A stretch of DNA of 64,000 nucleotides, from the sequence record MH675927.1; one strand, 5' to 3'. Source of the stretch: Escherichia phage vB_vPM_PD114. Position numbers and translations under genes: made by a program. Below the pieces are notes generated by a model. That model ran no database searches. It was not told the DNA's origin and saw nothing but the letters and a program-made list of their open reading frames with translations. Shown here piece by piece: positions 4,755-62,480 of the stretch. Within the stretch, counting starts at the first letter, position 1. The number at the start of each line of letters is the position of its first letter.

Positions 4755-4938
4755 TAGTGCTCACCTTTTTAGCTACATAATCTCCAGGTGGAATGTTATA
4801 TTTAAAGAAAAGCATACGGTCTAAACCAGCCTTACACATGTTTTCTGGGATTGTGATTGTATATAGGAGTTTATCTCCACGTTTATTGTATATTTTATAT
4901 ACTTCACCCTCTCCGTATTGTTTACCGTGAGAAGCCAT
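4744..4938 (-). CDS. hypothetical protein (64 aa)
   Basis: ORF track; overlaps neighbours by a few nt (coupled). Confidence 0.3.
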   Translation of the reverse strand: MASHGKQYGEGEVYKIYNKRGDKLLYTITIPENMCKAGLDRMLFFKYNIPPGDYVAKKVSTIGK

Positions 4939-5323
4939 CTACACTCTCCTTCAATTGTTCAATAGCATCTGCTGCTTCAATATACTTACCTTTATACATT
5001 GCTTTTAAAGCCTTACGAACAAGATTATCGTCTGTGTATAAATCAATTAGCTGATTAGCTAACTCAATTTTTACAGGATTTTTTAAGTTAGGGTAGGCTT
5101 CATACAACATATTGTAATATTTATCACTCAATTCTTTTTCAATATGAATAACGTGAATCGCTTTGTTTAGGTTGATCACACGATCACCTTTGTTTCGACA
5201 AGCATACTTAGCTAACTTAGTGAAACAAGGAGTTGCACCAATTAGATATGCAAGTTCCAAAGGTTGCATACGCATACGTTTGTAGTGATCACCATCAATT
5301 TGAATATCCAGTGCTGTAGTCAT
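4922..5323 (-). CDS. hypothetical protein (133 aa)
   Basis: ORF track. Confidence 0.35.
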   Translation of the reverse strand: MTTALDIQIDGDHYKRMRMQPLELAYLIGATPCFTKLAKYACRNKGDRVINLNKAIHVIHIEKELSDKYYNMLYEAYPNLKNPVKIELANQLIDLYTDDNLVRKALKAMYKGKYIEAADAIEQLKESVDGFSR

Positions 5324-5332
5324 AAATCCTCC

Positions 5333-5364
5333 AAAAATAAAGGGGCTTTCGCCCCTTTTTATTA
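5333..5364. terminator. hairpin AAGGGGC-TTTC-GCCCCTT flanked by A/T runs (bidirectional terminator/attenuator candidate)
   Basis: Perfect 7-bp GC-rich stem with TTTC loop followed by TTTTTATT; same hairpin sequence recurs at 58522. Confidence 0.45.
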
Positions 5365-6324
5365 AATTCCAATAACAGTGTTTACACGCTTCTCTTTGCT
5401 ACGCAAATTAACACGTCCACGAGACAGGCTATTACATGATGTGCATCTTAGCACTTGGAATGTACTAACCGCTGTTGTGTAAACCTTACCAGGAACAACT
5501 TCAAGGTGCTCTTTACCGCAACGAGGACAACGAAGTTTTTCATCGTCATAGAATGCAGATACGTTAGGATGTTGTGGAATCCACGCACGAAGTTTGATGT
5601 AAAGATCTCTAAGAGAAACAACATCACCATCGTTGTATGTTTGCATACGGAAGAAGGCGTGTCTGTCTCCTTCACAACATGCTTTCCACAAAGGAAAACC
5701 TTCATTATCAAGTTTAAAGTTTTCTGTATCAAAATACAAACACATTTCTTTAAGCGCATTAGAAGGTAGTGCAAACTGCTTCTTAGCTGCCTTGAGTGTA
5801 TCAATCACAACATAGTGTGATGGTGGCTCCATACCGTGAAAAGCAAAACGTTGGTTAATATAAGCCTTATCAAACTTAATACCGTTGTGTGCGATCACAA
5901 TATCTGCATCGTCAAGCAAGTGCCACAGATCTTGACATAATTCCCAATCATCTGTATGATCTATGTCAAACAGAGGATAATTGCTAAGGTTCTTACCTTC
6001 TACTTCTCCTGTTTCTAAATCAGCAGATGAATAGGAAAGCAAGTAACCTCGACGAATAACTTGTTCAGGTGCAATAAAGGCTTTGAAACGTGAGAAGCTA
6101 TACACAATCTCCGGTGCTGTCTCTACGTCAATAATTTTAATTACTGGCCCACCTTTATCTTGGGGAGCACCGCGATGTGGTGAATTTACACGAGCTAAGT
6201 AATCATTTACTGTGCTCTTCTTAGTAGAACTTCCCAACACCTCTTGTGCAATCTTACGCGAAGAATAACCTTGTGCTTTCATAGATACAATCAAGGCTTT
6301 CTGTTCGTCTGTTAATTTACTCAA
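5362..6324 (-). CDS. DEDD-type 3'-5' exonuclease (DnaQ-like) with N-terminal HTH and C-terminal zinc ribbon
   Basis: IIDVETAP (Exo I), HNGIKFD (Exo II), YNDGDV (Exo III); N-terminal SSRKIAQEV...STVNDYL; C-terminal CPRCG...CTSC. Confidence 0.5.
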   Translation of the reverse strand: MSKLTDEQKALIVSMKAQGYSSRKIAQEVLGSSTKKSTVNDYLARVNSPHRGAPQDKGGPVIKIIDVETAPEIVYSFSRFKAFIAPEQVIRRGYLLSYSSADLETGEVEGKNLSNYPLFDIDHTDDWELCQDLWHLLDDADIVIAHNGIKFDKAYINQRFAFHGMEPPSHYVVIDTLKAAKKQFALPSNALKEMCLYFDTENFKLDNEGFPLWKACCEGDRHAFFRMQTYNDGDVVSLRDLYIKLRAWIPQHPNVSAFYDDEKLRCPRCGKEHLEVVPGKVYTTAVSTFQVLRCTSCNSLSRGRVNLRSKEKRVNTVIGI

Positions 6325-7355
6325 TGTTCCTCCTGCTCTGAAATATATGCTTGTAGCATACTTTCAAAAGTTGTTTCATCATTCGCCCAACGTTTCATAT
6401 ATACCAACTGAAAAATTGTCTCTATCCATTCATCAGTTGTCATCTCTACTTCTTCACCATCCCAAGAAGTAAATTTAACGCCATCTGGGAACCATTCATA
6501 ATACTGATCTTTAACTGTCTGAAAAAGTTCAGCCTGTGTTTTACATTTGGAAATAAGATTAAAGCAAGTAATATCTCCAAACTTAACATCGAAATCTTGG
6601 TAAGGTCGAATACTATCTGTCTTATCGCCCATTAGCATTTGATAAGCTAACCAGTAACTACCCCAACCCTTAATTTCTTTTTTCTTACCTTTTTCTACGA
6701 TCCAGATATCGCCAATAGATTCATCAATCAGAATAATACAAGGATTTTTATAAACACCATCCTCTTTATAAAAGTTAAAGAGTAAACTTGGTGTGTGCAA
6801 GCTATCTTTGTCGATAGATGCTACAATATGAGAAAACTTACCAGTTTCCTTGTAGGCTTTATACCCTGCATATCCATAGATTTCTAAAGCATCATCTGCC
6901 TCAATACCAGTAACAACGTCACCGTTATGTTTTTCAACTAGATAATCTTTAGTATCTGATAAATGGATTGGTCTTAAATCTGATCGTTCTGATTTATATT
7001 CTTTTGGCATTTTGAAAGAATGCCGGAAGGTTTTTCCTACCCCGATGACACCGCAATACTTTTGAAGTTTTAGGTGATCCATCATCTGGGTTATTTTTGT
7101 CTTTGCAGCTTGAAACGTAAAAGAAATATTATCTGGGACTATTTGAACATCTTTTATTTCAAAATCTTCTCTAGAGAACAACTTTTTACCAGCAGCTTCG
7201 CGTTGCGCGTTAAGTGCTCCTAACCATCCTCCAATATTTTTTGAAGATTTACCCCAAAAATCTGTTCTTGTTTCAAACTCTTTTACATTACCGGAAGCCT
7301 TGTGTACAGCGTGGATTTTTCTTTGTTCTAAAGCTGAAGACGCTTGGAACGCCAC
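6321..7355 (-). CDS. putative 5'-3' exonuclease / flap endonuclease-like protein
   Basis: GIEADDALEIYGY resembles the EADD metal-binding motif of T5 D15 / T4 RNase H family; weak. Confidence 0.3.
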   Translation of the reverse strand: MAFQASSALEQRKIHAVHKASGNVKEFETRTDFWGKSSKNIGGWLGALNAQREAAGKKLFSREDFEIKDVQIVPDNISFTFQAAKTKITQMMDHLKLQKYCGVIGVGKTFRHSFKMPKEYKSERSDLRPIHLSDTKDYLVEKHNGDVVTGIEADDALEIYGYAGYKAYKETGKFSHIVASIDKDSLHTPSLLFNFYKEDGVYKNPCIILIDESIGDIWIVEKGKKKEIKGWGSYWLAYQMLMGDKTDSIRPYQDFDVKFGDITCFNLISKCKTQAELFQTVKDQYYEWFPDGVKFTSWDGEEVEMTTDEWIETIFQLVYMKRWANDETTFESMLQAYISEQEEH

Positions 7356-46991: not shown

Positions 46992-49151
46992 ATGAAACAG
47001 GCTATTTTTACTGTAACTCGAAATACGAGAGTAAATGCCAGTTCATTCAGCTATAAGACCGTCGATGGAACGGCGGTCGCTGGTAGAGATTATGTAGCTA
47101 AACAGGGAACAGTAACGTTCCCTTCTGATGCAGATTCTGCTACTGTAGTGGTTGATGTATATGAACGTCCGGCAAACTCTTTAGATCTTTATTTTACTCT
47201 TGAGATTACTAGCATAAGTCAAAATAACATGATGATCAATGAAGAAATTCGTTGTGTTATTACGACTAATCAATCGAATACAACCCCGCTAACTTGGCCT
47301 GTTGTGAAGTCTAGAATGTTTGATCCTAAGTTTTGGACAATAGATTCTCAAGCAACAGAAAGTTGTTCTATTATCTCTAATGGTGATTCTTTCACAGCAA
47401 GAATGGTTAATAGGACAGTGGCTGGTCTTGCTGGGATTATTTGGTCAACTTACGATAAATATGATCACAAAGGATTAGGCTACCAAGAACATTCTGACTT
47501 AAGTAAAGAGAAACTTTGGTTTAAAATGGAACTTAGTCAAGGTGTTCCTGGATTAAAAGAAGAAAAATTATTGCCATCCTTAACAGTGACACTGAAGGAT
47601 GAAACAGTTCATTATGTATCTCTAAACTTTTATGCAGAAGAAGTTTCAGAGGATGGTAAAACAGCAACAATCAAATTAGATTTCTCAAATTTAAAATCTG
47701 GGCCAGAAAATAATATTGTTGTTGACACTACACAGGTAGATAATATGTTCTTCTCCTTGATCTCCACAAGGTATCAAGAAATTGAAGATATTATTCCTGT
47801 AGAGAATGAGGATCTTTCCTTTAAGTTTACCATACTGGAACCTGATACGGGTTATAGTATGATGAATATGGGTAATTTAAATGTTCCAGCACACACCATA
47901 AGAATGTGTACATCTTATGATGATATGTATAACCTTACCCCAGAGCGAGTTATTTCTAACACCTACAGATTAGGTTATAGGGATATGATTAACCACTATA
48001 ATGGTATGTCACACTATTATCAATTTAGTTGGGACGCTGGCTCTAATAAATGGGCTTTGAACAGAACAGAATATTTAAACCCAGCAACAGAAGCCTGGTT
48101 TGATAACTTCCACGCTAATGCAAAAGCTATGGGCTACACAGTAATGAACTCCTTAAGTTTTGAACTTATGAGTACAGTGTGTCCTGTAGAATGGGTACAA
48201 CATACTTGGAATGATGATCTGGCTGCTACAGGTTATGAGCCACCAAGTTATGTTTTATCTCCTTCAATTGACGAAGGGATGAATTATTTACAAGGTGTAA
48301 TAAATAAGATAGCTTCTATATCCGCTGCTAATGATCTTCCGGTTATTATTCAGGTTGGTGAACCGTGGTGGTGGTATAACACAGCTACCAATGTACCGTG
48401 TATTTATGATTATACAACCAAAGTTGCATTTAATAATGAAACTGGATTATATGCACAAGATGTTGGTACAGTTAAAAATTATAAAACTGGTACACCATAT
48501 GATGAATATTATGCATTCCTATCTAAAACATTAGGACTGCGTGTTGCTAAATTTGCAACAGATACCAGATTAGCATACCCTGGAGCGAAAGTTACATTGT
48601 TACCATTTGTACCATCCATCTTAGGTAATGGTATGATGGAGTTTGTTAACTTCCCTAAAGATTATTATATCCCAGAAAACTTTGACTTTTATTGTTCAGA
48701 ATGTTATGACTGGTTGTTGGAAGGTAAAATGGAAAGATCTTTCGACGCTATCACAATACCTAATGAGCAACTAGGTTTTAGTTACGATAAGATACATTAT
48801 CTTGCAGGGTTTGTTCCAGATGCAACTCTAGCACCATTATATGGCTTTGATCCTGAATCAAACTATAGAACATATTTGTGGAAAATGATTATAGGCAATA
48901 TTGTATTGAATGACCAGAAGTTTGTTGGTTTATATCAATACATATGGGCTTACCCACAAATAATGCATGATTCAATAACTGTTCTTAATTCAAAATCCCA
49001 AGTGTTTTATATGGGTAATGTGCCTTTGAATTGCTACTTGCAAGATATCACTCTTAAACAGGTAAATGTTGAGATTGCCACTATAAGTGGAATTACATTA
49101 GCCACTAAATCTGGAGAAGATTTAGTAACAACACAAAAATTTTATATATAG
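46992..49151 (+). CDS. baseplate/tail structural protein (719 aa)
   Basis: ORF track. Confidence 0.4.
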   Translation: MKQAIFTVTRNTRVNASSFSYKTVDGTAVAGRDYVAKQGTVTFPSDADSATVVVDVYERPANSLDLYFTLEITSISQNNMMINEEIRCVITTNQSNTTPLTWPVVKSRMFDPKFWTIDSQATESCSIISNGDSFTARMVNRTVAGLAGIIWSTYDKYDHKGLGYQEHSDLSKEKLWFKMELSQGVPGLKEEKLLPSLTVTLKDETVHYVSLNFYAEEVSEDGKTATIKLDFSNLKSGPENNIVVDTTQVDNMFFSLISTRYQEIEDIIPVENEDLSFKFTILEPDTGYSMMNMGNLNVPAHTIRMCTSYDDMYNLTPERVISNTYRLGYRDMINHYNGMSHYYQFSWDAGSNKWALNRTEYLNPATEAWFDNFHANAKAMGYTVMNSLSFELMSTVCPVEWVQHTWNDDLAATGYEPPSYVLSPSIDEGMNYLQGVINKIASISAANDLPVIIQVGEPWWWYNTATNVPCIYDYTTKVAFNNETGLYAQDVGTVKNYKTGTPYDEYYAFLSKTLGLRVAKFATDTRLAYPGAKVTLLPFVPSILGNGMMEFVNFPKDYYIPENFDFYCSECYDWLLEGKMERSFDAITIPNEQLGFSYDKIHYLAGFVPDATLAPLYGFDPESNYRTYLWKMIIGNIVLNDQKFVGLYQYIWAYPQIMHDSITVLNSKSQVFYMGNVPLNCYLQDITLKQVNVEIATISGITLATKSGEDLVTTQKFYI

Positions 49152-55761: not shown

Positions 55762-56103
55762 ATGGAGCTAACAGAAGTATGGGATATCGCTAAAGAGGCG
55801 ATTATCCCTCTTATTGGTGTAATCTGGGTGGTCTTCAAACAGAAGATAGATGATATGGCAAGTGATTTGGACAAAATGGAAGAGAAATACCGTGAACTAG
55901 AAAAGAAGTTGGTGTTTGTTGAATCCACTTATGCTACCAAAGCAGAACTTGCTCAAATGCTTAACCAGATCAACTCTACATTAATGGCAAATAATACTGC
56001 CTTAGAACAGAAGATTGAAAAAATAATGGATTTAAAAAATGCTCCTGTTCAATTAATGCTAGAGGAGATTACGAAGCGCACACAAAGTAAGGACAAAAAT
56101 TAA
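55762..56103 (+). CDS. hypothetical coiled-coil protein (113 aa)
   Basis: ORF track. Confidence 0.3.
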   Translation: MELTEVWDIAKEAIIPLIGVIWVVFKQKIDDMASDLDKMEEKYRELEKKLVFVESTYATKAELAQMLNQINSTLMANNTALEQKIEKIMDLKNAPVQLMLEEITKRTQSKDKN

Positions 56104-58517
56104 TGGCGAATTTTCCAACATATCCTGCTACGACACTAGAACAAGGTGTTGATCTGGTTATATTCTCGTCTAACCAGATGCATGATGTTATTAACGGGGA
56201 TGCTACAGCAACTGTAGAAACCGAAACAGGTTTAATACCTACACTGCGTAAAGCACTTGTTGATAACTTCTTCTTTAAGAGTCCTGTTGCTTGGTCAGCA
56301 GGATCAACTGAAACTGTATTTAACCAGTTACGTTATTTTGAAAACGGCATCTTGAGTGGGTACTACTATGCCCCATCTGCCACTACTGCGAACCCTGTAC
56401 CTATGCAGGGTACACCTGTAGGAGACAGTAACTGGACTCTGTACGCTCTTAAAACTGAACAGTTAGCTTCAGATGTGTATCCTTGGTATTTTAAAGGTGC
56501 TACAGGATATGAAACAGAAATCAGTCCTCCTTATATCTTTGATAATGCTATTGTCACCATTAACGGTGTAATTCAGATTCAAGGTGAAGCATTTACTATC
56601 AAAGATAGTAAAATTATTCTGGCAGAACCATTAGGTTTAGATCCGTCTACTGGTCTACCTAACAAATTGTTTGCTTTTATTGGTAAAACAACAGCCTCTA
56701 CTTCTTATGTAGAGAAAAACCTTTTGTCATCTACCACTGGTGCAGCAATGGTTGGTCTTCCATCTGGAGGCAACCTGTTACAAGCTCAATACTTTGTAAC
56801 GCCTGAACAGTTTGGTGCAATTGGTGATGGAGTTACCGATGATACTCAAGCAATTCTAAAAACCATTACTTTCGCTAACACGAATAACATTCAAGTACGT
56901 GCAGATAAGAATTATAGATTCACAAGCTCAATTGCTATGTCTGGTATTCGTTGGTATGGTGGTACATTCACTGGTAACGGTGGAACAATGATTTCTACTG
57001 TGTCCTGTTGGATTGAAAACGTTCGCTTTGAAAAATGTTATGTTAAGATGTTAGGTGGTGATTGTCGATTCTATCGTAATATCTTCTCCAACGCAACATC
57101 TACAGCAGCATTTTTAATGCAAGCAATGACAAGTGAAGGTACGTTGGACTTCAGTTACAACGAAATGTATGGTTGTAAATATGCGATCCTGCAACAAGGT
57201 ACTGGAGAAGTAATGACCTATGGGCGTTACTCTAACAACTACATTCACGATATCAAAGGTGATGCTATTGAACTTAACGTAGTTCAAAGACACTACACTG
57301 AAGGTTTGATCATCGAGAATAACCACATTGCTAACGTAGATGCTTCTGGACAAGGTGCAAACTGGGGTATTGGTATTGGTGTAGCAGGTAGTGGCCCATA
57401 TGGTGTTGATGCTCCTGATTCACAATATGTACGTAACTTCAGTATCGTTGGAAATAGGGTTTACAATTGCCGTCAATGTCTACACGTTGAAATGGGTAAA
57501 AACTTCACAATACGTGATAACGAAGTTTATCCTAACACAGCAGTTTCAACAGGTACAGGTTTAACTACTTGTGGTGTTGCATTATACGGATGCCAAGACT
57601 TTGAAGTTGATGGTTTAACTGGTTATCTGCTTAATGATCCGTCTGTTTCAACACGCATGGTCTTTATTGACTGGGGTGTTAACGGTGGAAGATATGCGGG
57701 GCCACCAATTAACTTTACAATTAAGAATTTGGATATTCCAGAATCTTCGATTGAGATTGCAACTGCTGGATCAGACGACTGGGAAAACTCTACAATTGTT
57801 AGTAACATCAATTGTAATGATTTTAAATGGCGTGGGCTACCATCTAGCTCTACTTTTAATAATATTCGTTGCCGTAGTATTGACTTTATTGGTCAACACG
57901 GAAGCGGAGAAGGAAGTGGTGGCGGTTTCTATGCTCGCAGCCAATTCACGTATATGAAGTGGGTAGGATGTACAGCACTTAGCGGAGATGAAACAACAGT
58001 TTCTTTTGCTAAAATCTACACGGATCGTTGCGATCAGGTTGGAAATAACTTTGGTGTTCCAACTGCTGTTGATGGTACAGGTCATCGTGGGCCAGTCTTA
58101 ACCACTATTTCTGAACAATATTTTACAGATTATGATGAATTCCCAGGTGGGCGTGACTTCCCTACTGGAACAGTTATTCATTGTGCAAGCGGTAAAAAAC
58201 ACGTTGTTACAGCAGGTGGTGCTTTCTTTAGTGATAATGAGAAAATAAAAGCAACTGTTACAGGTCAAACCTATCTACAGTCTAATGCTTTAAACTGGGC
58301 TAGTAATGGCTACGCTAAAGCAGCAGGTACTAAGATTGTTATTCCAGGTGCAGGAGCAAATGGTGGCGATCTTGTGACAACTATAGCACGTGCTACATAT
58401 GTGACAAATAGTTTGTACACAATAGATATTGCAGATCCAATTGTAACACCTACAGCAGAGAATACACAAATTAAAGCTCTGAACCCTGTTACTTTTGTTA
58501 CTGTCAATAATGCTTAA
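56103..58517 (+). CDS. tail spike protein (804 aa; beta-helix/pectate-lyase-like fold suspected)
   Basis: Large ORF with repetitive G/N/T-rich segments typical of beta-helix tailspikes; terminator follows. Fold not verified. Confidence 0.4.
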   Translation: MANFPTYPATTLEQGVDLVIFSSNQMHDVINGDATATVETETGLIPTLRKALVDNFFFKSPVAWSAGSTETVFNQLRYFENGILSGYYYAPSATTANPVPMQGTPVGDSNWTLYALKTEQLASDVYPWYFKGATGYETEISPPYIFDNAIVTINGVIQIQGEAFTIKDSKIILAEPLGLDPSTGLPNKLFAFIGKTTASTSYVEKNLLSSTTGAAMVGLPSGGNLLQAQYFVTPEQFGAIGDGVTDDTQAILKTITFANTNNIQVRADKNYRFTSSIAMSGIRWYGGTFTGNGGTMISTVSCWIENVRFEKCYVKMLGGDCRFYRNIFSNATSTAAFLMQAMTSEGTLDFSYNEMYGCKYAILQQGTGEVMTYGRYSNNYIHDIKGDAIELNVVQRHYTEGLIIENNHIANVDASGQGANWGIGIGVAGSGPYGVDAPDSQYVRNFSIVGNRVYNCRQCLHVEMGKNFTIRDNEVYPNTAVSTGTGLTTCGVALYGCQDFEVDGLTGYLLNDPSVSTRMVFIDWGVNGGRYAGPPINFTIKNLDIPESSIEIATAGSDDWENSTIVSNINCNDFKWRGLPSSSTFNNIRCRSIDFIGQHGSGEGSGGGFYARSQFTYMKWVGCTALSGDETTVSFAKIYTDRCDQVGNNFGVPTAVDGTGHRGPVLTTISEQYFTDYDEFPGGRDFPTGTVIHCASGKKHVVTAGGAFFSDNEKIKATVTGQTYLQSNALNWASNGYAKAAGTKIVIPGAGANGGDLVTTIARATYVTNSLYTIDIADPIVTPTAENTQIKALNPVTFVTVNNA

Positions 58518-58557: not shown

Positions 58558-60519
58558 GTGATTTTAACACGTCCAAATAGTGCCATTGCAGACATGGTAG
58601 AGTCTCGCTATAGAAAGCGTAGAAGTTTTGCAAGTGGTTTTACCTTAAGAGATGCTCGTGAAGCATTGCTCTTTGAAGCTGACGGTAACTACTATCAGTG
58701 GAAAGGTTCTCTACCTAAAGTTGTACCTGCTAACTCTACTCCTACATCTACTGGAGGGATTTCAGATACAGCTTGGAAAAATGTGGGTAATGCAGATGAC
58801 ATTGCTCAAATAGAATCAGAATTAGATGCTATTGAAGCTGAAATTGAAGATCTTAGAGAATCCATCCCAGAAGCTGGTAAATCAGCTTACCAGATGGCCG
58901 TAGACAATGGTTTCCAAGGTACTGAGACACAGTGGTTGGCTTCTTTAAAAGGTGATCCAGGTGCTCCATTAAAGCTATTAGGGACACTATCTAATACCAA
59001 CCAATTACCTACAAGTGGAAACAATGCAGGGGATGCATGGATTGTAGGCGAGAATATGTATGCTTGGGATGGTACTGCTTGGAGAAAAGTAAACTCACAG
59101 GGGCCAGAAGGTAAATCTGCTTATGAAGTATGGCTTGCAGCAGGAAACGAAGGTACAGAACTAGATTATCTTGCCGCAATTAAAGGTGATAAAGGGGAGC
59201 CTGGCCCAGAGGGGCCACAAGGTGTGCCAGGTAACAATGCTAATGGTTTTGATTACCAAGGTGCAGCTAATTCCGTTTCAGATCTTCCTTCTGCATCTCA
59301 TGGAAACACATCTCAAGCATGGAGTGTTGGTACATATCTATACGTGTCAAACGGTGTAGAATGGATCAATATGGGCGCTATAGTGGGGCCAAAAGGAGAT
59401 AAAGGCGACAAAGGAGATAAGGGTAACACTGGTGATTCAGCTTATCAAGTCTGGTTAAATGCTGGTAACGTTGGTACTATTGACGAATATATTGCCTCTC
59501 TGAAAGGAGAAAAAGGTGATAAGGGAGACAAGGGTGATCAAGGTGAACAGGGTATACAAGGCTTGACGGGGCCAACTGGTGCAGGGTTGACCATTATTGA
59601 CATTCTGACTAGCACTTCTGAACTGCCACAAACTGGAGAAGAGGGTGATGGTTATCTGATCAATAATGAACTTTGGGTCTGGTTGCAAGGAGCCACAGAG
59701 TGGACAAATGTTGGTCGTTTAGCTGGTACTCCAATCACTGCAAAAGGACACGTTGCGTCTGCAAGTGCACTTCCTCCTACAGCTAATTACGGTGATGCTT
59801 ATCTGACGGAAGATACAGGTCATCTTTACATTTACACCTATGATGAACAAACTCAAACTGCTGAATATGTAGATATGGGTAGTTTGAAAGGTGATAAGGG
59901 TGAAAAAGGTGACGCTGGTACTAACGGTACAGACGGTGCAACTTGGATTGTTAAAACAACAGATCCAATCTCTAGTGATGGTAAACAAGGTGATTATGCC
60001 TTTAATATCTCCACTGGCGAGGTGTTCTTAAAAACATCTGCAACTGTCTGGACTTCTCAAGGTACACTACCTAGTATCACAGATGCACCTAGTGATGGTA
60101 AGACTTATGCTCGTAAAGATGGAGCATGGGAAGAACTCACTAGTTCTGTAGATGGTCAAGATATAGTTCCAACAAAAGTAACAACTAATTTTATAGAGGT
60201 TACAGCATATACCAACAATTCTGTTACAGGGGACTGGACACCTCCAGGAACACATAACATGAATGTGTTGAATCTTACTGGTAACTCTACTATAAAAGCA
60301 TGGCCTGGTGTCGAAGATAGCACAAAACCTAAACCATTCTCTGCAATAGTTTATCTTATCCAAGATGCCACTGGAGGTCATACTGTTACTTTAGATCCAT
60401 CTTACAAAGTAATTGGTTCTAGTGATATTAATACAGATCCTAACGGAGTAACAATACTACAACTAACATATTGTGGTGTTGGCGATTACGTGGATGCTAT
60501 TGTTGCTAAACGCACATAA
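58558..60519 (+). CDS. tail fibre protein with collagen-like Gly-X-Y repeats
   Basis: GDKGEPGPEGPQGVPG, GPKGDKGDKGDKGNTGD, GEKGDKGDKGDQGEQGIQGLTGPTG, GDKGEKGDAGTNGTDG; GTG start after AAGGAG. Confidence 0.55.
   Translation: MILTRPNSAIADMVESRYRKRRSFASGFTLRDAREALLFEADGNYYQWKGSLPKVVPANSTPTSTGGISDTAWKNVGNADDIAQIESELDAIEAEIEDLRESIPEAGKSAYQMAVDNGFQGTETQWLASLKGDPGAPLKLLGTLSNTNQLPTSGNNAGDAWIVGENMYAWDGTAWRKVNSQGPEGKSAYEVWLAAGNEGTELDYLAAIKGDKGEPGPEGPQGVPGNNANGFDYQGAANSVSDLPSASHGNTSQAWSVGTYLYVSNGVEWINMGAIVGPKGDKGDKGDKGNTGDSAYQVWLNAGNVGTIDEYIASLKGEKGDKGDKGDQGEQGIQGLTGPTGAGLTIIDILTSTSELPQTGEEGDGYLINNELWVWLQGATEWTNVGRLAGTPITAKGHVASASALPPTANYGDAYLTEDTGHLYIYTYDEQTQTAEYVDMGSLKGDKGEKGDAGTNGTDGATWIVKTTDPISSDGKQGDYAFNISTGEVFLKTSATVWTSQGTLPSITDAPSDGKTYARKDGAWEELTSSVDGQDIVPTKVTTNFIEVTAYTNNSVTGDWTPPGTHNMNVLNLTGNSTIKAWPGVEDSTKPKPFSAIVYLIQDATGGHTVTLDPSYKVIGSSDINTDPNGVTILQLTYCGVGDYVDAIVAKRT
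59390..59580 (+). repeat. collagen-like triplet-repeat coding region (GGN-GAN-AAR periodicity)
   Basis: Nucleotide-level 9-nt periodic repeats ggagataaaggcgacaaaggagataagggt... Confidence 0.5.
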
Positions 60520-60522
60520 TCA

Positions 60523-60547
60523 AAGCCCCTTCGGGGGCTTATTATTT
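60523..60547 (+). terminator. rho-independent terminator AAGCCCC-TTCG-GGGGCTT + TTATTATTT
   Basis: Read directly. Confidence 0.5.
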
Positions 60548-60558
60548 AAGGAGATTAA

Positions 60559-62445
60559 ATGTATCCTATTCCTTTATTTATGTCAACAACATCAGCTTCA
60601 GTAGTAACAGCTACGTCTATAACCACTTCCTCTATTGGTATTGCAATAGTTGGTAGTAAAAAGCAACTGACATACACAGTTTCACCAGAAGATGGTGCGT
60701 TATTTGATATAGCTTTTTCATCTTCAGATAATACCAAAATGGTTATAGATAATAACGGTATGATGGAGTTTGTTGCTGAAGGCGGTTTTGATGCAATAAT
60801 GACAGCTAAAAATAATTTAGGTGCTGTCTTAACTGATCAATCTGGTGGCTATGCTTCAGAATTAAGTGTGTACACTGAAAGTCTGTCTGCTATGGATGCA
60901 GGAACTACTCAACAATTGGTTGCTACAATCAGTCCAGAAGGTGCTAAAGACCTTCCAGACATGGTAATTACGTACACCACAACAGATCCAGAAGTAGCTA
61001 CTGTAAGCCCTACAGGATTAATAACTGCTCTTAAAGATGGCAGTTGCCGTATAGGTTGTACTGCAACTTATCAAGGAACAGTGGTGGCCTCTGATAGTTC
61101 TTATTTAGGTGTTAATGCTATTCCTGTTATTTCTAATGTAACAGCCGTGGCAAACAGCTATGGAGACATTCGTGTTGCTTGGGATGTAGCTGATCCGCTA
61201 GATGGTGATACTTATACTGTAGAAGTATTAGATTTAAGTAATAACAGTGTCCAGTGGACTACAACAACCACGAATACTTACGCTTACTTTGATATCTCTG
61301 ACTCTATTCCTCTTTATGGGTTTGCTCCAACATACCTTAAAATTAGCGTTAAGAGCACCAAAGCAGCACCCGTTATCTTTAATAACTCAATAGCTACAGA
61401 TGATTCATTCATTAAAGAAGTTATTGTCTTTGCTGGACAAGATAACGTAAATGCACACTTTACAGAATTATCTGGTGCAAATAAAGCAGCAATGAGTAGC
61501 ACAACAGCCCGTAACGCATATGCTACGCAACGTGGTTTAGCAAATGCTGAAGTTCTTCCGTTAAATGCAGCTTCTGGATCATCAGCAGCAGATAAATATG
61601 CAGATGATAAAGCCGGAACAGGTACACCAGACAACTACTGGTATGATCTGGATAACGCAGCAGATGGGCCATGCTTAACTAATTTTATCACTAAAGTCAC
61701 ACCTTATGCAAGTAAGGTTAAAGCAATTATTTGGGGACAAGGTGAAAACGATGCTGTATCAGCATCTTCGACTGTTGCAGGTAGGTACAGTAACACTACA
61801 CGTTACCATGATGCTACGATAGCTATCTTTGATAAGATGCGTACAATAGTTCCTGCTTCTCAAGCAAAAATTGTTTGGCAGATCCTAGGACGTTCTTATC
61901 TATATGGTGTAGAAGTTAATGGTGTGGATTGGCAGAAATACAGAAATGTACAAAGAACCATCTCTACAGCACGTGACGATGTTATCATTGGTTCTTGGGT
62001 GGATGGTGCTGAACGCTACAGTGGTTATGTTTATGAAGAAGGTATTGATGGTCGTATCCATTATGTTTCTTCTGTATATCAAACAGCAGCTACAAAACTT
62101 GCTAAATCAGCAGCAGACGGTACAGACTTAACATCAACACCGCCTGTTTGGGTTGATATGTCTGTTCCAACAGGAGGAGCCGCTGTAAGACAAGCTAACC
62201 AAGATGCAATTATTTCTTGGGAACCAGCAGGATATACCAAACATTACTTCCGAAATGTAAACGTCCTCACAGCAGCAATTCTTACAGAACAAACTCTTGA
62301 TACTAACACTTACACATTTACTTATGCAGATCAGGTTGAACAATACGGGTTTGCAGCAGGTACAACAGTGTTTGATGTTGCACACTATGATGCTGATAAT
62401 GACGTGTTATCACCTCTTGTCAGATTTACAGTTAATATTACATAA
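60559..62445 (+). CDS. tail protein with Ig-like (Big_2-type) domains and SGNH/SASA-like esterase domain
   Basis: N-terminal Ig-like repeats (TYTVSPEDGALFDIAFSSSDNTKMV...); C-terminal AIIWGQGENDA motif typical of sialate O-acetylesterase/SGNH hydrolases. Confidence 0.45.
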   Translation: MYPIPLFMSTTSASVVTATSITTSSIGIAIVGSKKQLTYTVSPEDGALFDIAFSSSDNTKMVIDNNGMMEFVAEGGFDAIMTAKNNLGAVLTDQSGGYASELSVYTESLSAMDAGTTQQLVATISPEGAKDLPDMVITYTTTDPEVATVSPTGLITALKDGSCRIGCTATYQGTVVASDSSYLGVNAIPVISNVTAVANSYGDIRVAWDVADPLDGDTYTVEVLDLSNNSVQWTTTTTNTYAYFDISDSIPLYGFAPTYLKISVKSTKAAPVIFNNSIATDDSFIKEVIVFAGQDNVNAHFTELSGANKAAMSSTTARNAYATQRGLANAEVLPLNAASGSSAADKYADDKAGTGTPDNYWYDLDNAADGPCLTNFITKVTPYASKVKAIIWGQGENDAVSASSTVAGRYSNTTRYHDATIAIFDKMRTIVPASQAKIVWQILGRSYLYGVEVNGVDWQKYRNVQRTISTARDDVIIGSWVDGAERYSGYVYEEGIDGRIHYVSSVYQTAATKLAKSAADGTDLTSTPPVWVDMSVPTGGAAVRQANQDAIISWEPAGYTKHYFRNVNVLTAAILTEQTLDTNTYTFTYADQVEQYGFAAGTTVFDVAHYDADNDVLSPLVRFTVNIT

Positions 62446-62450
62446 ACAAA

Positions 62451-62477
62451 AAGGAGCCATTAGGCTCCTTTTCTTTT
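62451..62477. terminator. bidirectional terminator AAGGAGCC-ATTA-GGCTCCTT between convergent genes
   Basis: A-run upstream and T-run downstream of a perfect 8-bp stem; near-identical hairpin at 63621. Confidence 0.55.
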
Positions 62478-62480
62478 ATC

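Follow-up and report, generated by a model that had tools for sequence, protein, structure and literature searches.

An SGNH-fold domain with aspartate in place of the nucleophile serine in a mosaic tail protein of a phi92-like coliphage: a candidate glycan-binding module homologous to N4 gp65

A very broad host range makes the phi92-like phages (Justusliebigvirus) valuable, and their receptor is the NGR glycan, as it is for phage N4; dependence on NGR was reported both for Justusliebigvirus phages and for N4 (PMC8669472, PMC11990801). In Justusliebigvirus and Vequintavirus, gp142 was named as the NGR-glycan binder, a proposal that rests on a patch of 59-76 aa common to gp65 of N4 (bioRxiv 10.64898/2026.04.02.716166). 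The coliphage N4 depends on NGR, and its tail protein gp65 is both the non-contractile tail sheath and the receptor-binding protein (PDB 9lc0, 9yf4, 9yf5). Gp65 is 1382 aa long, with an NCTSP_N head, further repeats for binding of the tail plug, and gp64 as its partner, and it contains two SASA-like copies, the first with a GESQ motif that includes a Ser and the second fully degenerate. A homologous protein, ORF69, is present in the Achromobacter podophage phiAxp-3, of which the fragment 795-1195 was experimentally sufficient for receptor (LPS) binding (PMC5862860).

The soluble SASA/CE6 esterases CAC0529 (1zmb), At4g34215 (2apj) and E. coli NanS (3pt5) have a Ser nucleophile in a GQSNM or GQSNA motif. 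Block I (GQSNM) holds this Ser, and the adjacent Gln lies in the oxyanion hole; Block II has a Gly, Block III reads (H)QGE.D and Block V reads D-x-(L/I)-H (PMC10792757, PMC9487903). The Gln of Block I and Block III form an inverted oxyanion hole, and NanS is active despite having no Block V Asp (PMC9487903). Two SGNH systems outside this group are relevant to pockets that have another use. CE2 (2w9x) has a cellulose-binding function in its active site, which is a precedent for an SGNH pocket that binds a ligand, and in the OSK domain, a non-enzyme, Block I reads GDDFM with Asp in place of Ser (PMC10792757). Among phage tail proteins, gp63.1 of G7C (4qnl) belongs to another SGNH branch; this tailspike is trimeric, has its Ser intact and comes with a dedicated adaptor.

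The window, a stretch of 64,000 nucleotides, is from Escherichia phage vB_vPM_PD114 (sequence record MH675927.1), a Justusliebigvirus (phi92-like) E. coli myophage. The last structural gene on the plus strand encodes a protein of 628 aa, exactly at the position of the original prediction, and is situated as follows:

56103-58517, plus strand, upstream neighbour, homologue of the colanidase tailspike gp150 of phi92
58558-60519, plus strand, upstream neighbour, homologue of phi92 gp151 with Tail_spike_N, collagen-like repeats and a fibritin-C-like end
60523-60540, plus strand, terminator-like hairpin (stem of 7 bp, 5 of them GC, then a T-rich tail)
60548-60553, plus strand, ribosome binding site AAGGAG, 5 nt before the ATG
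60559-62445, plus strand, gene of the 628-aa mosaic tail protein, short allele (ORF list)
62448-62473, both strands, bidirectional terminator, common to the convergent minus-strand gene

The hairpin separates the gene from the upstream tail fibre gene (the gp151 homologue), and an AGGAG ribosome binding site is likewise annotated for gp152 of phi92. The slot is identical in PD06 (colanidase, tail fibre, a gene of the 628-aa type and then a strand switch). In total 55 phage records matched the gene at 90-99% nucleotide identity. Four of the matching records, MG065639, MG065645, MG065656 and MG065689, are named "Campylobacter phage" (host C. jejuni) and are approximately 97% identical to the Justusliebigvirus gene; these are probably mislabelled or contaminant assemblies. 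Public labels of the gene and its homologues are "tail protein", "lateral tail fiber protein" and "tail carbohydrate esterase", the last given in one GenBank record among the phage matches, to a homologue of 939 aa. Judging from gene position, annotation and homology, the protein is probably located in the virion; a literature search found no virion proteomics covering the protein, and the gene is absent from the text of the BME3 paper.

From N- to C-terminus, two Ig-like domains are followed by a beta-repeat domain, a SASA-fold domain and a second beta-repeat domain:

60616-61119, plus strand, two Big_2 Ig-like domains, residues ~20-100 and 103-187 (Pfam, PHROG)
61126-61383, plus strand, first gp65-type beta-repeat domain, residues 190-275 (aligns to N4 gp65 from ~621)
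61384-62148, plus strand, SASA-type SGNH-fold domain, residues 276-530 (family profile, AF2 model)
62161-62442, plus strand, second gp65-type beta-repeat domain, residues 535-628, up to the protein end (matches three gp65 repeats)

The N-terminal Ig-like repeats noted at first were confirmed by Pfam Big_2 (PF02368), with 47.1 bits against a gathering threshold of 22.8, in two stretches of which residues 113-170 matched best. PHROG Ig-domain families matched residues 10-86 and 103-170, and proteins of Phapecoctavirus share the Ig part at 62-72% identity. The two beta-repeat domains are homologous to each other and to the repeats of N4 gp65. The first, probably of an FN3/Ig-like fold, is of a type that recurs beside SASA-like domains throughout the family. 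No attachment domain was identified in the 628-aa protein, of which the Ig-like and beta-repeat parts gave no confident model, and an NCBIfam search of the protein gave no match.

An SGNH domain resembling sialate-O-acetylesterases had been proposed from the motif AIIWGQGENDA. Pfam SASA (PF03629) matched around this motif with scores (15.0 and 16.8 bits) below the gathering threshold of 24.8. A word-indexed homologue search with residues 270-628 found only 2 proteins and was replaced by an exhaustive search of residues 270-538 against 1.84 billion representative proteins, which gave 79 proteins at E<=1e-3. Of 19 members of this family, 14 matched Pfam SASA, the best at E 1.6e-13. The profile of the family matched the crystal structures 1zmb and 2apj (E 4-6e-4). 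The AF2 model on the family alignment (pLDDT 92.2, pTM 0.90) has the three-layer alpha/beta/alpha, flavodoxin-like SGNH fold, in which Block I sits where strand 1 turns into helix 1, and so bears out the domain assignment; a single-sequence AF2 model of the whole protein (pLDDT 33.6) was unusable. The domain differs from the soluble SASA/CE6 enzymes in that its Pfam SASA score falls short of the cutoff, it is part of a phage tail protein, and an Asp occupies the position of the nucleophile. To G7C gp63.1 there is no close sequence relationship, and the protein is not an intact-Ser trimeric tailspike of that type.

The catalytic blocks are located at:

61435-61446, plus strand, Block I, G293-Q294-D295-N296, with Asp for the nucleophile Ser (Asp codon GAT at 61441-61443)
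61576-61578, plus strand, Block II glycine G340 (Gly in 71 aligned copies)
61732-61752, plus strand, Block III, W392-G-Q-G-E-N-D398, the SASA (H)QGE.D within AIIWGQGENDA (alignment, family profile)
62059-62061, plus strand, Block V histidine H501, in DGRIHY (alignment)

Block I is aGQSNa.gH in the alignment of the family, where 52 of the 68 aligned copies have the Ser; here it reads GQDN. All 36 orthologues have Asp at this position, although they fall in two clades that are only ~41% identical overall: 32 read FAGQDNVNAHF and 4, from the Avunavirus-type clade, FAGGDNAAAHF. A sequencing error was rejected as explanation, because every one of the 36 orthologues has the Asp and the GAT codon is two changes away from AGY and not one step from any Ser codon. 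Other lineages of the family have Ala, Met, Val or Glu instead of Ser, and the alignment indicates that Ser was lost several times independently within this family of tail proteins. Among fully aligned copies the combination of Ser, QGE and His was found in 22, and that of Asp, QGE and His only in the lineage of the 628-aa protein. Q294 and Q394-G395-E396-N397-D398, the putative oxyanion-hole residues of the SASA type, are kept. The Block II Gly is replaced by Ile in Av-05-type orthologues (P0035), so that one clade is without it. In Block V the residue three positions before His501 is Gly498, hence there is no acid at that position. Asp497, four positions before the His, was considered as triad acid and rejected, as its spacing is wrong and orthologues differ here (GIAGRIHY, with Ala, in 4). 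The Block V His is kept even in copies with degenerate Blocks I and III, and its retention is therefore no proof of catalysis.

It had been suggested that the domain could deacetylate O-antigen or capsule with a Ser-His-Asp triad, of which only the His (His501) was found. The fold and the Block III motif fit a canonical SGNH esterase, and one record carries the esterase label mentioned above. Given that the nucleophile Ser is present in none of the 36 orthologues and that no acid precedes His501 at the required distance, a canonical Ser-His(-Asp) esterase is very unlikely from the sequence, and we give this reading hardly any credence. Judged by the refuting condition that came with the proposal, the deacetylase activity thus fails at the sequence level, and the public label "tail carbohydrate esterase" should not be trusted at face value.

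The domain shows no sign of decay. dN/dS values were calculated by the Nei-Gojobori method against four relatives (alia, PaulScherrer, Eryne and PD06). For the whole gene they ranged from 0.07 to 0.17, and for the SASA-like domain from 0.035 to 0.064 against alia, PaulScherrer and Eryne, which was the lowest in the gene in these three of the four comparisons; against PD06, which is near-identical and differs by far fewer substitutions, the value of the domain was 0.135. Such strong purifying selection indicates that the domain has a function, which is maintained rather than decaying.

One such function could be that of a working deacetylase with an unconventional centre, in which Asp295 and His501 would activate water, or Asp would act as nucleophile, with Gln294 and QGE as the oxyanion hole. 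It would remove O-acetyl groups from capsule, O-antigen, colanic acid or NGR. All SASA signatures except Ser are retained (Gln294, Gly340, QGE and His501), the Asp has remained fixed over deep divergence without drifting to various residues, and within the gene dN/dS reaches its minimum in this domain. Furthermore, the full Ser set is present in most close relatives, which are probably active enzymes, and the activity of NanS (PMC9487903) is a precedent for a missing Block V Asp. Against this, the nucleophile is always Ser in the competent SGNH families that were tabulated, the sole Ser-to-Asp case in those reviews, OSK, is a non-enzyme (PMC10792757, PMC9487903), and the His is kept even in clearly dead copies. 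Overall we regard such an enzyme as improbable, at about one chance in five. An active Asp variant would be an unusual catalytic solution for the SGNH fold; we know of no SGNH hydrolase with an Asp nucleophile.

The closest solved relative of the protein is N4 gp65 (phmmer E 1.2e-25; profile E 1e-61; TM 0.75-0.77). Residues 194-618 aligned to gp65 621-1067, and residues 278-438 aligned a second time, to gp65 429-592. Both proteins therefore contain a homologous core, a module of beta-repeat, SASA-fold and beta-repeat domains, of which no mention was found in the accessible literature for the ~430 aa involved. The differences are considerable: the 628-aa protein has a single SASA-like copy with Asp, where gp65 has two, it has an Ig-like N-terminus and belongs to a contractile-tailed phage, and NCTSP_N (PF23844) and the GMSHY TIM-barrel segment are absent from it, the NCTSP_N/TIM part being encoded by a separate gene.

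For the phiAxp-3 homologue the binding fragment can be placed on this module. ORF69 795-1195 corresponds to residues ~338-628 of the 628-aa protein; its first residue lies beyond Block I in the second of the SASA-like copies (727-998), and it extends through the beta-repeats. As the fragment lacks Block I and still binds, the module in a studied homologue binds its receptor without the nucleophile motif. The comparison is one at ~23% identity, with an Achromobacter podophage whose ligand is the LPS of another genus.

We consider it about an even bet that the SASA-fold domain has no catalytic activity and binds a surface polysaccharide in the manner of a lectin. The domain descends from genuine carbohydrate O-acetylesterases but has lost the nucleophile (Ser to Asp295) and is without the Block V acid; the old active-site pocket would hold the polysaccharide without hydrolysing it. 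OSK has the same Ser-to-Asp replacement and CE2 the same use of a pocket, but their lineages and ligands are unrelated and both serve as analogy only. What counts against a binder is that the pocket is otherwise unusually intact (Gln294, QGE, His501), as one would expect of a modified enzyme too. Because the core is the same module as the receptor-binding middle of N4 gp65, our best guess is that the ligand is the NGR glycan, as for N4, or else some other exopolysaccharide that is acetylated. The module is not a universal determinant of NGR use, since Vequintavirus and Phapecoctavirus phages that were reported to be NGR-dependent do not have the SASA-like/beta-repeat module. The broken copy in phi92 likewise counts against an NGR-specific role. 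With ~430 aa of homology to gp65, compared to the 59-76 aa on which the gp142 proposal rests, the 628-aa protein can be put to the test as another candidate, besides gp142, for how NGR-targeting myophages recognise glycans.

The gp142 homologue of this phage is encoded 11 kb upstream:

46992-49151, plus strand, homologue of phi92 gp142 with Calx-beta, NCTSP_N and TIM-barrel_NCTSP (Pfam E 1.2e-81 and 7.1e-21)
48003-48017, plus strand, GMSHY motif of the gp142 homologue, residue 338, within ORF 46992-49151

This ORF matched N4 Gp64 (E 1.8e-27) and gp65 (E 1.5e-11). It has an N-terminal Calx-beta domain and a full TIM-barrel_NCTSP, and corresponds to gp65 aa 55-416 (including GMSHY) joined to gp64 aa 107-408; in N4 the TIM barrel is apparently divided between gp65 and gp64. 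A single chain with NCTSP_N, TIM-barrel_NCTSP, beta-repeat, SASA-like domain and beta-repeat was found in 16-17 of 80 family proteins, which are metagenomic and include most of the nearest relatives of the 628-aa protein; none was found among the cultured phages of the collection searched. Genomes with two separate matches are those of Justusliebigvirus and of the Av-05/TH18 group.

Based on these architectures, the 628-aa protein may act alongside the gp142 homologue. In a stronger form, the two would be a split receptor-binding protein of the N4 sheath type, which is one chain in the metagenomic relatives and is cut elsewhere, into gp65 and gp64, in N4; the Asp295 pocket would then be either the NGR site or the first serine-less SGNH deacetylase. 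We hold this form to be a speculative option, with odds well below even.

A further division may exist within N4 itself. The C-terminal third of the SASA-like profile, including the Block V His, weakly matched N4 Gp64 14-77 (E 0.069), and the first SASA-like copy of gp65 ends at profile position 164. An SGNH domain may be completed in trans across the gp64/gp65 heterodimer, although the signal is weak.

The gene occurs in two allelic forms. The short allele (628 aa) is present here and in Eryne; the long allele (939 aa), with 311 aa added after residue 628, occurs in numerous relatives, among them alia and Bas60/PaulScherrer. Comparison of 62443-62480 with positions 4885-5820 of the alia locus shows a short stretch of microhomology at which the two forms come together again, immediately 5' of the shared terminator (62448-62473), which in alia is kept after the long allele. 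The short ORF is not an assembly truncation, as the same stop codon and terminator are present in many independent genomes. In the last beta-domain (62149-62442) dS was 1.18 against alia and PaulScherrer, compared to ~0.1 in the rest of the gene, which indicates a recombination breakpoint near residue 530. A simple deletion from an alia-type long allele was rejected on the basis of this dS of the last domain; the short allele more probably derives from a long allele of another type (P0001-type, 936 aa, 97% identical across the last domain).

The type phage phi92 has no intact copy. Its copy (5411-7073 of the phi92 locus analysed), annotated as gp152 and gp153, is degraded by a deletion of 224 nt, which removes residues ~199-272 and with them the first beta-repeat domain, and by a second frameshift. 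The protein is therefore dispensable, at least for phi92 on its hosts. In the syntenic gene of Phapecoctavirus ESCO5 the Ig part is shared and the other modules differ, other Phapecoctavirus-type proteins with the same Ig part carry RCC1-type Pfam domains, and the syntenic gene of Avunavirus Av-05 has the same Asp-bearing layout. The locus thus behaves as a mosaic, exchangeable host-recognition cassette that is not essential in every phage, and the original link to host recognition was judged to be right.

These rearrangements also bear on the possibility that the protein is a structural or decorative spacer without a specific ligand, a dispensable remnant of a larger receptor-binding protein whose working part is the C-terminal module still present in the 939-aa alleles. 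The short allele is without this distal module of 311 aa, phi92 carries the deletion and the second frameshift, and Ig-like and FN3-like domains are often passive decorations. Intact short alleles in dozens of independent isolates, strong purifying selection that is greatest on the SASA-like domain, and the conserved pocket residues all speak against it, and a mere spacer seems to us a doubtful proposition, with roughly one chance in seven. A binding module remains our preferred reading of the protein.

The short allele of Eryne is 98.4% identical over residues 186-628. Eryne is reported to make poor use of NGR on K-12 without O-antigen, and the long-allele phages Bas60-62 use NGR well (PMC11984140). 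An association of the short allele with poor NGR use is unsupported, since muut and outra, which also carry the short allele, came from isolations on K-12. The extra module of 311 aa, for which Pfam gave no match, is also present in tail proteins of Phapecoctavirus and in tail-tip proteins of Kagunavirus, and in the Bas60 record the long form is annotated with "intimin and glycosidase domains".
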